DNA of 57,479 nt, from NCBI GenBank assembly GCA_048939995.1, contig JBHLOY010000014.1, positions 1 through 57,479 of the forward strand. Reading direction: 5' to 3'. Position 1 is the stretch's first letter, and each line of letters begins with the position of its first letter. Shown here piece by piece: positions 22,655 to 27,940 of this stretch. Position numbers and translations under genes: made by a program. Below the pieces are notes generated by a model that had not been told where the DNA came from, did not search any database, and saw only the letters and a list, made by a program, of their open reading frames with translations. The stretch is from Promethearchaeota archaeon. Lineage in GTDB: Archaea; Asgardarchaeota; Lokiarchaeia; Sigyniarchaeales; SOKP01.

Positions 22655-25600
22655 TTAGTCCGTTTGATATTTCCCTTTTCCATAGAATAGATCAGCATAA
22701 ATCGGTTCAAACTTTTCATTAAATAATTTATGATTCATCCAAATCTTATCTATTCCATTCCAAGTGAAATTAATGAGGGGATTATACGGTTTCAAGAAAT
22801 CTAAGTTTCCATAAATAGATTTGAGAAATCTTTTTCCATCAACTAAATCATTGAGTATTAAAAAATAATCAATTCCTAAATATTGAAAAATTAAATCAAA
22901 AAGTTTTGTAAATTCATCTAATTGACAATCAGGTAGATATAACTTGATCATCATTCCATTCTCAAAATTAATCTGTTCTTTAAATCCGTGAATATAGTAT
23001 TCACCCTCGACTTCATATATGAATCCATAATTAAAAAAGCTAAAAATCTTTATGATTTTCTCAGTAAATTCCTTTTTTACATTTGGGAGTACGATATACA
23101 GTTTTTCGTATAAATTCAAATTCTTTAGTGACAAATAGGGGAATATCAATCCTTTTTTCAATAATTCAGTTAAATAGTTTATTGTATTAAGTTTTTTTGT
23201 TCCTAAATAAGACTTAATGTTTAATGAATGCCAACTATATACGTTTAAAAGGGCTTTAAATTCAGAAGATTCAGGTTCGAAATAGTCTGTTACATTTAAA
23301 TCACCAATATTAAATTCTTTTAACTTTATGAACTGAATATTATAATCTGGATTGAAAAGTACGTTTTGAAAATAAATTTTAAACCTATTTGGGTCTAAAT
23401 CCCAATTGTCTGAAGTTAAATTATGATTTGGGTGAAGTAAGGAGTATATTTTCTTTATAAAGAATATACAATATTCTCTTATAATTTTTTTAGATTTAGT
23501 TAACCAATTCAAATATGGTATCACACCAGGATTGCGGTAAGGAGATAAAAATTTAATAATAAAGGAGTTTGAGTTGTCAAAACTCAGTGAATATTTAACT
23601 TTTTGAAAGTAATTTGAAAGAAGTAATTTAAAATCAATCCCATTTAAATCAGTAGGGTAAAAATATAAAAAGTATTGCCCTAATCCAAAATTCTCAAATG
23701 CAGGAAAAAATCTAATTGATTTTACATAATTTTTGAAAAAATAAGTTTCTTTTATTTTATTATACTCATCTAATTGAAATAAAGTTTGGGTTAAATCTAA
23801 GTGAAAATCTACCACTCTGTTAATTTCACGTGAATTAAGGTTAACTCTTTCTTCTGAAATTTCGGTGTTGTCAATCAGTTCTGAAAAATCTTTCCCCCAA
23901 AGTCTTTCTTGATTTTTATTTGGGGTTTCTTGAAGAGGTTTCAAAGGGTTTCCAAAGATACTTTTCACATAAATAAAGAATTGGTCAAACAAATCAGGAG
24001 TGTAAAAGAATTCTTTTCGTTCCAAATCATAAAAATCCTTTATCGAAGAATATTCAACCATCCCACTCCATAAATAACGTTTAAAATAAATGATATCGTC
24101 TTTGAAAAGATTATAAATTAGAGAGAAAATCTTTTTCCTCAATTTTTCTTTTAAAGAAGGTATAAATATATCGATAGATAAGAAATTCATTTCGTTATAT
24201 ATGTTTGAACCATTAAGAATTATTATTTGAGGAAAAATTAATTTTATTTTTTCAAGCTTATTTAATACTTCCAATCTGGATTTTAAAATTAAAATAGGAA
24301 TATAATTGTTGAAAAATGGAATAAAAATAGTGTTTATGAGATTAGGTTTAATTAAATCATTTTTTAAGAAATTGCTTAAGTGATTCTCAATTAAATTGTA
24401 TGTAATTCTATAATCCTTATAATTTTCATAATATTTTTTTAATTTTTGCTCTTTTTTTTTGAAAATATTATCTACTTTCGATTTGTTATTGATTAAAGCT
24501 TCAATTGTTTTAATCTTAAATATTTTTAGATCTTGACAAGATTTTAATACATTGTAGTAAGATTGATATTCATTAACTTTTTTATTATAAAGTTTTTTTG
24601 ATTTAAAATACAAGGGAATTATTTCTCTAAATAATGTCCTCTTTAAATCGACCTGATTAAATAATATATTTTCTTCGATTGTATTTTTAATACTATAATT
24701 AACTAAATAATTTTGGAATTGAATTGAATTGCTAATTGAAGGATGATGTTTAAAATAATCACTAATTAAATTAATAGAATTAAGTAGAGTATTAAGCATA
24801 TTTTTTATATAAAAAAAGCCTTTTAACCTATTAGAATTTAAGAAAACGAGAAAATTTTTTTTCAATTCATCATTTAAACTAAAAATTTCTAGATTTTTTT
24901 TTAGTTTTTTAATTAACAAACGTTGACTGAGAATTTCATTTATATAATCAGACTTCAAATTTTGTAGTGTTATTGCTTTTCTTTCAAACCCAAAACCAGT
25001 AATAGAAAAAAAACGTATCCTATCAATTAACAACCATTCAATGATCGAGAGTGCCTTGTTGTAGCGTTTATTCAAATAATCCATATTAAATTCAATTTCA
25101 AAATTTTTCTCGTACATTGGATTCTTGAAATTAATTATATGGTTTTTCATTGCAAAATTCCTTAGATAATTTAGATTCTTAAAGTAAGTAACAGTTTTGT
25201 AGAGAAAACAATTTTTTCTTATGATATAGCCATAATCTTCCAGTTTTCCAATGAATTCAACAAAATCTTTATAATAATTGTTAGGTAATATGCAATAACC
25301 ATAGATTTCAACACTAAAATTCGTTCTTGAACTTCTTTGGGAAATAATGAAAGGAAATTCTTTTAAAATTAAATTAATGTCTTTCTTTTTTAACGAGGGA
25401 TTAAATTCTAAATTGATTAAAATAGGAATGAGATTAAGTGCAACCCAATTTATTTGATAGCTAGGGGCAATATCACTATATTTTTTTATCCATGTCATAT
25501 TAGCAGTGAAGTTTCTTAAACTTAGTTCTGTCACTAGCACCTTTTCCTTTTTGAATTTTTTAAAGTAATCCTGATAATTTAATAAAGCAGTATATCTCTT

Positions 25601-26602: not shown

Positions 26603-27940
26603 TTGAAGACTTTAAAAGTAAAAAATCACAAAATGCCAAAATCCTATATACATACTAAACAAATCTGGGTTAAAGAGATACCAAAACAAGATAAAAGATT
26701 TAAAAGTTTGAATTTAAATTATATTGGATTTTTTTCCTTTTATTTCTCAATAAGTGTAATAAGAATAATTTTATCAATATATTTACCAGCATATCTATTG
26801 AATATTTTAAATATTAATAGGAGTAATTTAGCTTTTGTGCAAATCTTTACATATTCTGTAATGCTCCTAGCTCCTGTATTAGGGTATCTATACGATAAAT
26901 TTTCGAGAAGTAGAAAAGTGTTGATGTTCTCGTTTTCTATTACCCTCATAGTAAGTTTTTTTCTTCTTATATTTACTTTTAATAGTCTTTTTATCTTTGG
27001 GCTAATTTTTGCATTAAATCTTTTAAGTCAACAAATTGTAACTGTTGGTGTAAGTAAATACGTTGTGCTTCTCTCTCATAATGAAACGATTAAGGATAGT
27101 AATTTAACTGTAGTGAATATCTCTGCCAATATTGGTTCCTTAGTTCCTTCAATCATTTTTTTATTTACAGTTCAAAATCTATATAATACTTCTAATTGGA
27201 ATAATTTTTTTTTAATCGGAGTGATTTGTGCATTACCAATTATTTTTTTAACGGTTTTCTTGAAAAATGAATGTTCAGAGAATTCATTAAATCCTACATT
27301 TGAAAATCCTAATTTAGTATTAGATAAAAATTCCTCAAAAAAAAGCCTATATCTACAAATTTTTCTAATATTTTTATCCTATACATTAATATGGAGTGAT
27401 TACCTTTATCAGTATCCCATTAGTTCATGGATCATAACAAAATATGGGGAAAATGGTTTCAACGTTTACTCTATCTCTTTTTTCTTCTTTATCATACTGA
27501 ATTGTTTAGGAGTATTGATTGGAAAGTGGAATTCTAAAAGAATAAATTCAAAACTTTATAATACAAATCTTAAACATGCTCTCCTTATAAAGCATAAAAA
27601 AAGAATTATCTTTATAACTATTACTTTTTATATTGGTGTAACTACTTTAATGAGCTTTGCTAATTTTTATATATTATTAATTTGTTTTGGAATTATTAAT
27701 ATTTTAGCAGGAATTATGCTTCTAAATTATGTTTCCTTGATGATGACAATAACTAAAAATTTTAAGTATAAGACATTTGCCTATCAAGTTTTGACTTTAG
27801 CATTAGCGGTTAGTAGTGTTATATTTATACCATTAGGGACATTTTGTTCATTATTCATTCCTACTGAGATTCTATTTTTAATTGTGTGTTTTTTATCATT
27901 TCTTTCAACTATACCTCTGATTTTTATTGAGTCAAAGTAA
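26603..27940 (+). CDS. MFS transporter
   Basis: About 12 TM segments; motif A LGYLYDKFSRSRK. Start may be TTG 26603 or ATG 26633. Confidence 0.8.
   Translation: MKTLKVKNHKMPKSYIHTKQIWVKEIPKQDKRFKSLNLNYIGFFSFYFSISVIRIILSIYLPAYLLNILNINRSNLAFVQIFTYSVMLLAPVLGYLYDKFSRSRKVLMFSFSITLIVSFFLLIFTFNSLFIFGLIFALNLLSQQIVTVGVSKYVVLLSHNETIKDSNLTVVNISANIGSLVPSIIFLFTVQNLYNTSNWNNFFLIGVICALPIIFLTVFLKNECSENSLNPTFENPNLVLDKNSSKKSLYLQIFLIFLSYTLIWSDYLYQYPISSWIITKYGENGFNVYSISFFFFIILNCLGVLIGKWNSKRINSKLYNTNLKHALLIKHKKRIIFITITFYIGVTTLMSFANFYILLICFGIINILAGIMLLNYVSLMMTITKNFKYKTFAYQVLTLALAVSSVIFIPLGTFCSLFIPTEILFLIVCFLSFLSTIPLIFIESK

Follow-up and report, generated by a model that had tools for sequence, protein, structure and literature searches.

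In a 57,479-nucleotide stretch of contig JBHLOY010000014.1 of a Promethearchaeota archaeon (assembly GCA_048939995.1; the whole stretch is hereafter called the window), the gene for a 1204-residue protein and a gene for a transporter of the major facilitator superfamily (MFS) are separated by an AT-rich spacer in which a 12-codon open reading frame (ORF) had been proposed. The original prediction offered two roles for it, either as the peptide of a regulator-peptide-exporter signalling module or as a stalling leader that controls the MFS gene. Judged from the genes at this locus and its relatives, the three components form a real, family-wide peptide-regulator-transporter module of one Lokiarchaeal family, for which signalling is the candidate function. 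The features of the locus are collected in Table 1.

The micro-peptide gene is organized as had been described: a Shine-Dalgarno (SD) sequence, GGTGAT, is followed after a 6-nt gap by an ATG at 26470, 12 codons and a TAA ending at 26508, and behind these lie a 7-bp hairpin (26508-26524; one terminator-like site, against 0.1 expected from shuffled sequences) and a T7CT7 tract (26530-26544). The ORF is divergent from that of the 1204-aa protein and reads in the same direction as the MFS gene. Its GC-rich island has 51% GC, compared with 25% for the spacer, and the TATA-like elements of its candidate promoter fall within or beside an imperfect inverted repeat (26398-26429). One supporting claim did not survive: the GGTG core, said to precede several genes of the window, was found before 0 of 51 window ORFs and a GAGGT-type SD before 2 of 51, so strong SDs are rare in the window. 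An SD, a short Gly/Pro ORF, a stable hairpin and a U-tract occur together only here in the 3.75-Mb genome. Because of this unique combination, and because equivalent ORFs are present at orthologous loci, the micro-gene exceeds what chance would provide, and its sequence context indicates that the hidden 12-residue gene is real.

Table 1. Features of the peptide-regulator-transporter locus (window coordinates).
Feature	Coordinates	Strand	Basis
1204-aa putative peptide receptor/regulator: gluzincin-like pseudo-peptidase and four Lrp/AsnC-like units	22655-26269	-	ORF; AlphaFold2 model
Second double-Lrp module, residues 806-1195, most conserved part	22685-23854	-	Atlas structures; conservation by region
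First double-Lrp module, residues 205-775: winged helix-turn-helix (wHTH)-RAM, then wHTH with helical insertion-RAM	23945-25657	-	NirDL match
N-terminal domain, residues 1-204: gluzincin fold without zinc ligands, candidate peptide-binding site	25658-26269	-	Model, predicted local distance difference test (pLDDT) 89
Candidate peptide-gene promoter	26398-26442	+	TATA-like elements 26404-26412 and 26435-26442
Shine-Dalgarno GGTGAT	26458-26463	+	Sequence; most relatives have GAGGT/GGAGG in the same place
Leaderless micro-peptide gene, 12 aa (MNPGLAGGPPRY)	26470-26508	+	Sequence; equivalent ORFs in relatives
3' hairpin and U-tract, a terminator or a stem that stabilises the 3' end	26508-26544	+	Terminator-like site search; relatives
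Separate MFS promoter/SD region	26549-26595	+	TATA-like 26549-26559 and 26571-26578; GAGG SD 26592
MFS transporter, low-copy family, candidate peptide exporter or importer	26603-27940	+	PF07690, E 2e-17; linkage

In the final tally over 129 loci of the 1204-aa family (labelled L followed by a number), a Gly/Pro-rich micro-peptide gene with its own start, its own stop and usually a 3' hairpin flanks the large gene at 96, and two further loci hold decayed copies. Many loci that had initially scored as empty carry the peptide gene downstream of the large gene. Leaderless peptides of 8-16 aa, mostly of the form M-P-x-x-G-x-x-x-P, are encoded at 63 of the 96 loci, precursors with a signal-peptide-like front at 31, and repeat polyproteins with three copies each of a PHGGxGCP core at two. 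The tagged precursors (34-45 aa, often two or three in tandem) have a basic start, a hydrophobic core and an end of the G-x-G-G-P type; their signal peptides were called from the basic N-terminus and hydrophobic core in the sequence, with no predictor behind the calls. Paralogous arrays and repeat polyproteins (L037, L097, L109, L136, L143, L148) resemble, by analogy, multi-signal systems. At the ten closest orthologous loci with upstream DNA, an SD, an ORF of 8-12 codons, a hairpin and a U-tract are present in 10 of 10, and the peptide gene lies 200-300 nt from the large gene and points away from it. A fixed detection rule returned a candidate at 52 of 127 loci of the large gene (41%), compared with 34 of 1493 other long genes (2.3%), and the peptide gene was present in all three distinct held-out metagenome loci that were fetched later.

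That this element is a non-coding RNA, or an ORF that arose by chance in the GC-rich island, is scarcely credible. It is true that a hairpin follows the ORF, that 12 codons easily arise by chance and that near-identical strains yield zero substitutions; the spacers of L214-L216 are identical, and these strains therefore carry no signal of selection. The Rfam search of the peptide-gene region, however, gave zero matches, the region folds no better than shuffles, and between orthologues the nucleotide sequence diverges while the start, frame, Pro/Gly codons and stop persist. Among the leaderless genes (n=62), 59 start with ATG, lengths are 8-14, and Pro occupies position 2 in 45; the conserved Pro and Gly residues are encoded by several synonymous codons, and third positions vary most (24/30/40). 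Nearly all of the leaderless relatives shown have 3' hairpins, and these are of unrelated sequence. As one example, the relative G019 (L031/L002) shares the frame PG-x5-PRY-stop with the 12-aa peptide. A search with the spacer DNA in 40 relatives gave a single real match, because nucleotide similarity is too low.

Peptides diverge rapidly, with 54% identity where the receptors are 80-90% identical and identical peptides in only 1 of 19 pairs, and peptide types track receptor clades. The peptide gene is an autonomous, movable unit that is kept beside the 1204-aa gene, and conservation holds for the type of gene rather than for its sequence; the product is a Gly/Pro-rich core of 8-12 residues that evolves much faster than its partner. 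The neighbourhoods of the cassette (L021-L180) are unrelated, with RNase P genes here and CODH/ACS, TFB, tRNA-modification and CoA-ligase genes elsewhere; from their number and variety it follows that the cassette moves within genomes. At L200 the peptide gene and a C-terminal fragment of the large gene are duplicated locally, downstream of the large gene; L106 has a decayed array of precursor genes, and the precursor of L085 is apparently frameshifted. The nearest TATA-like site lies 50-69 nt upstream of the start in 34 of 64 relatives with an SD. In the sister clade (L022-L030 and L167-L173), a palindrome with a 14-nt spacer is position-conserved 76-80 nt before the peptide start and abuts the TATA-like box, and its arms co-vary between two subclades; we regard it as a candidate operator and as a lead only.

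The same arrangement bears on the second role originally proposed, in which the peptide ORF would be a GPP stalling leader or attenuator that acts on the MFS gene in cis. A peptide gene does lie within 1 kb before a co-oriented MFS gene in 23 loci, and Pro-rich C-termini and Pro-stop are recognised stalling motifs, as in SecM and TnaC. The peptide gene is nevertheless inverted, facing away from the MFS gene, in the syntenic relative L213 and in L086; it is convergent with the MFS gene in 14 loci, has no MFS gene upstream in 15, and stands downstream of the large gene in L197-L200 and L235. Because the gene can take all of these positions, control in cis is largely refuted. A fixed 5' position and orientation with a conserved arrest motif was not seen across the loci: GPP is not conserved, and the last residue is variable. 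Many relatives have signal-peptide precursors or tandem arrays without an MFS gene, and others have polyproteins, all of which would be senseless as arrest leaders. The MFS gene moreover has signals of its own, namely the predicted element TATATAAA at 26571-26578, a second TATA-like element, typical of the family, at 26549-26559, and, before its TTG start, a GAGG SD (26592). We therefore consider a leader or attenuator extremely improbable.

By raw counts, the transporter goes with one of the forms that the peptide takes. Its family, usually with one or two copies per genome and for which no subfamily assignment was obtained, is found near 54 of 65 untagged loci and only 2 of 31 signal-peptide loci. 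Of the genomes that encode an untagged peptide, 58 of 60 have this family, compared with 4 of 13 of those with tagged peptides only. Tagged and untagged forms switch five times on the receptor tree, and the independent contrasts are never reversed. The core is made in either of two forms, with a signal-peptide-like front or bare, and the bare form stands beside a dedicated MFS gene. The simplest inference from this distribution is that the MFS protein replaces the Sec route for untagged peptides; it is also a candidate importer of the peptide.

The 1204-aa protein is present in one copy in this genome. Its family occurs in 109 of 135 genomes that belong to the same family as the host, which is one Promethearchaeota (Loki) family, and among 301 genomes drawn from the phylum it is confined to that family; its named homologues are Promethearchaeota or Lokiarchaeota hypothetical proteins. 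Sequence searches of Pfam (including the Lrp/AsnC family models), NCBIfam and the PDB gave no match, and a metagenome scan with the N-terminal part of the protein gave nothing. An AlphaFold2 model (pLDDT 87.9, predicted template-modelling score 0.89) supports the multi-Lrp-like nature that had been proposed, with four Lrp/AsnC-like units by fold. The first double-Lrp module matches NirDL (4czc; Z 13.0, 300 aligned, model range 207-769) and, at Z of about 5, LrpC, AsnC and NMB0573; Foldseek gave a probability of 1.0 to NirDL and zero matches under E 0.001. For the second module, archaeal HTH_AsnC/HTH_24 proteins of the Atlas gave template-modelling scores by target of 0.64-0.68, and both halves of the Lrp part match archaeal HTH_AsnC proteins structurally. 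In the model, the four wHTH-RAM units are arranged as two pseudo-dimers, and this paired succession of wHTH and RAM is the architecture of the Lrp/AsnC, or feast/famine regulatory, proteins. A link to double-Lrp proteins of other Asgard families rests on structure, because profile searches with the family failed to reach them. Two very distant homologues, L237 and L238, were searched for a clear peptide gene and had none.

When residues 1-204 were folded alone, the top 50 VIA matches were almost all gluzincins (M1 aminopeptidases, thermolysin), each of them modest (Z up to 7.1, root-mean-square deviation 4-5, about 170 aligned). The HExxH-x18-E motif of these peptidases appears as R92-E93-x-x-K96 ... 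Q115; R92 is present in 100 of 107 homologues and in 61 of 61 leaderless-type loci, and E93 in 104 of 107. HExxH together with the third-ligand Glu, and hence all three zinc ligands, was found in 0 of 107 homologue rows. The modelled domain is presumably inactive as a peptidase, and we infer that its metal-free cleft, with a fixed Arg/Glu pair, would be a natural place for holding peptide ends. A helical peptide-binding domain of the tetratricopeptide repeat (TPR) type is absent from the confident model, whose parts were identified as gluzincin, wHTH and RAM units; a long helical stretch occurs only in the 431-615 insertion, assessed just within the full-length model. A complex prediction of L143 receptor residues 256-1201, with the N-terminal domain cut off, and the 33-residue repeat precursor scored 0.01, a value that counts neither for nor against binding.

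These structures leave some room for the 1204-aa protein as the enzyme that processes or modifies the peptide, either through an Lrp fold used as in NirDL/AhbAB or as a zinc-free peptidase that relies on the retained Glu. The top structural match is indeed a siroheme decarboxylase, NirDL, the gluzincin fold keeps the general-base Glu, and tight linkage suits an enzyme-substrate pair. All three zinc-ligand positions are replaced, however; the four winged-helix units persist and rank with the better-conserved regions, the closest Atlas structures are HTH_AsnC regulators, and tagged precursors would leave the cell, away from a cytoplasmic enzyme. On balance we judge an enzymatic role to be quite unlikely.

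Modifying enzymes of another kind stand at a minority of the loci. At L143 (4109-6239) and L148 (1181-3311), three-repeat precursors stand directly before genes for a YcaO protein and an MFS protein, and with their Cys-containing cores these form a candidate Asgard cluster for peptides that are made on the ribosome and modified after translation (RiPPs). A gene of about 550 aa for a B12-binding, radical-SAM-like protein adjoins the peptide gene or genes at L098, L120, L128, L134, L140 and L171, usually with the MFS gene beyond it. MccB/PaaA-like ThiF proteins stand beside short peptides at L091 (4126-5250), L095 and L108, and class I methyltransferases at L110, L114 and L145; several peptides at these loci start M-F/R without an SD, probably on leaderless mRNAs. 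Such enzymes favour a view of the peptides as effectors that are secreted, or as RiPP precursors, such as microcin-like antagonists or other metabolites; the MFS protein would export them or provide self-protection, and the large protein would regulate the cluster in answer to another ligand; archaeal RiPPs with antagonistic activity do exist (PMC12144867). A modifying enzyme is nevertheless absent from this locus and from most loci, the constant partner is a regulator with a dead peptidase domain and not an enzyme, and the cores, at 8-10 aa and uncharged or acidic, are unlike typical membrane-active peptides. The enzyme-bearing loci would also suit a modified signal, and we hold effectors or RiPP precursors to be unlikely.

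The peptide might also be a short-lived intracellular inhibitor or timer of the large protein, acting either in the manner of an antitoxin or as a sensor of membrane state or of halted translation, with export as the means of its removal. Its strong SD and the terminator of its own suggest that it is expressed highly and autonomously, the cassette shifts between genomic sites, and there is the decay or duplication at L085, L106 and L200. Hypervariability and multi-peptide arrays are, on the other hand, more easily explained by signal specificity, and no toxin or nuclease domain was seen in the partner, which makes an inhibitor or timer very unlikely in our view.

We consider it reasonably probable that the secreted peptide, the 1204-aa protein as a cytoplasmic receptor-regulator and the transporter together constitute a signalling cassette. 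Tagged precursors would leave by way of Sec and signal peptidase, and bare peptides, including the 12-mer encoded here, would cross the membrane through the MFS protein. The peptide would then re-enter the cytoplasm, or act there, and bind the 1204-aa protein, for which the likeliest sites are the cleft in the zinc-less gluzincin domain and the space between RAM domains; binding would alter the attachment of the four winged-helix units to DNA and thereby change transcription of the peptide gene, the MFS gene and other targets. The outcome may be sensing of density or of kin. The regulator-peptide-transporter module of the original prediction stands as far as linkage, hypervariable peptides, their two forms, MFS coupling and protein fold are concerned.

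Several observations weigh against this interpretation. About a quarter of the loci have no visible peptide, including those with the deepest-branching receptors (L160-L164), and these peptide-less homologues retain R92/E93, so the gluzincin domain has some function even where no peptide is linked. The fixed detection rule was defined only once the first loci had been seen. The association with the MFS gene amounts to just five independent contrasts (p 0.25, not significant), and the sister loci L096 and L102 combine a tagged peptide with an MFS gene. No importer was identified for the tagged forms, and no linked Opp importer was seen. A search for a general inverted-repeat operator found none; inverted repeats reached p<=0.1 in 15 of 83 promoters. 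The Lrp part has its best structural counterpart in an enzyme, NirDL.

Among known systems, the closest parallel is that of RopB with a leaderless communication peptide (LCP), SIP of Streptococcus pyogenes, in which an ultrasmall ORF gives rise to a peptide of 8 aa that has no secretion tag (PMC10518010). Both have an untagged peptide of 8-10 aa encoded by an ultrasmall ORF with an SD, divergent from the gene of a cytoplasmic regulator, with occasional C-terminal extensions and with RiPP clusters and transporters nearby. In contrast to RopB, the modelled Asgard receptor has no TPR-type repeat domain and consists of a gluzincin domain and four Lrp/AsnC units, and its predicted peptides are Gly/Pro-rich rather than hydrophobic, belong to an archaeal host and are linked to an MFS gene. 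With the RRNPPA systems (PlcR-PapR, NprR-NprX, Rap-Phr, Rgg-SHP, AimR-AimP) the module shares precursors of 35-45 aa that are encoded beside a regulator and run from a signal-peptide-like front to a short core at the C-terminus, hypervariable cores and paralogous pairs, whereas the unrelated receptor fold, the tandem precursor arrays and the occurrence of tagged and untagged forms in one family set it apart. A small SD-led ORF that adjoins a regulator, varies between pairs and is either signal-tagged or leaderless is thus common to the module and to RRNPPA/LCP systems, and the module is still not a member of them because its receptor is of a different fold.

The receptor itself combines familiar parts. 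NirDL, a fused double-Lrp enzyme, and the Lrp/AsnC regulators likewise have wHTH and ferredoxin-like RAM units as pseudo-dimers; the receptor differs from them in its four units per chain, its helical insertion of 185 residues and its peptidase-like domain at the N-terminus, and its proposed ligand is a gene-encoded peptide and not an amino acid or tetrapyrrole. Residues 11-204 have the fold of gluzincins and their HExxH-x18-E spacing, whereas the zinc ligands are replaced by R, K/Y/N/L and Q, presumably leaving the domain inactive. A fusion of a peptidase with an HTH domain is known in IrrE. Microcin C (MccA/MccB/MccC) and YcaO RiPPs also pair a very short ribosomal peptide with an MFS protein, and MccB-like or YcaO enzymes stand at the minority of related loci described above; they differ in that this locus and most relatives have no modifying enzyme and in that the constant partner is a large regulator.

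Other features of the window are noted here for completeness. A 274-aa gene downstream of the MFS gene has the same place in L213-L215. On the reverse strand, 44908-44972 has an Rfam tRNA-like match (46.8 bits) that was not called by ARAGORN and is possibly a degenerate or atypical tRNA, and 5138-9586 encodes a 1482-aa SMC-family protein, longer than usual. Two overlapping large ORFs of 763 and 803 aa (34971-37262 and 37244-39655, forward strand) have no Pfam match, nor do the ORFs at 9695-10891 (reverse), 28075-29311 (forward) and 55399-56535 (forward).

A 2026 review states that archaea show responses of the quorum-sensing type whose signals remain unknown (PMC13419125), and in Haloferax the signal, a small molecule, withstands proteinase K (PMC12240190). 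A literature search that covered few subscription papers found no description of the present module. The broadest form of our proposal, which we regard as evenly poised, is that peptide communication evolved independently in Asgard archaea: a dead gluzincin domain or paired RAM domains would read a genome-encoded 8-12-mer and control a single-chain, four-unit Lrp regulator, with Sec and dedicated MFS export interchangeable and with optional RiPP-type tailoring that widens the signal code. If true, this would give archaea, in the Asgard group that is closest to eukaryotes, a first peptide signal that is gene-encoded and has a cognate receptor, and the receptor would be of a class unlike the bacterial TPR ones. 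Synthetic 8-12-mers would allow a direct test of the proposal in vitro, and specificity swaps could draw on about 90 natural pairs. A whole class of genes has been missed by annotation, and the module may bear on the difficulty of culturing slow-growing Asgard organisms.

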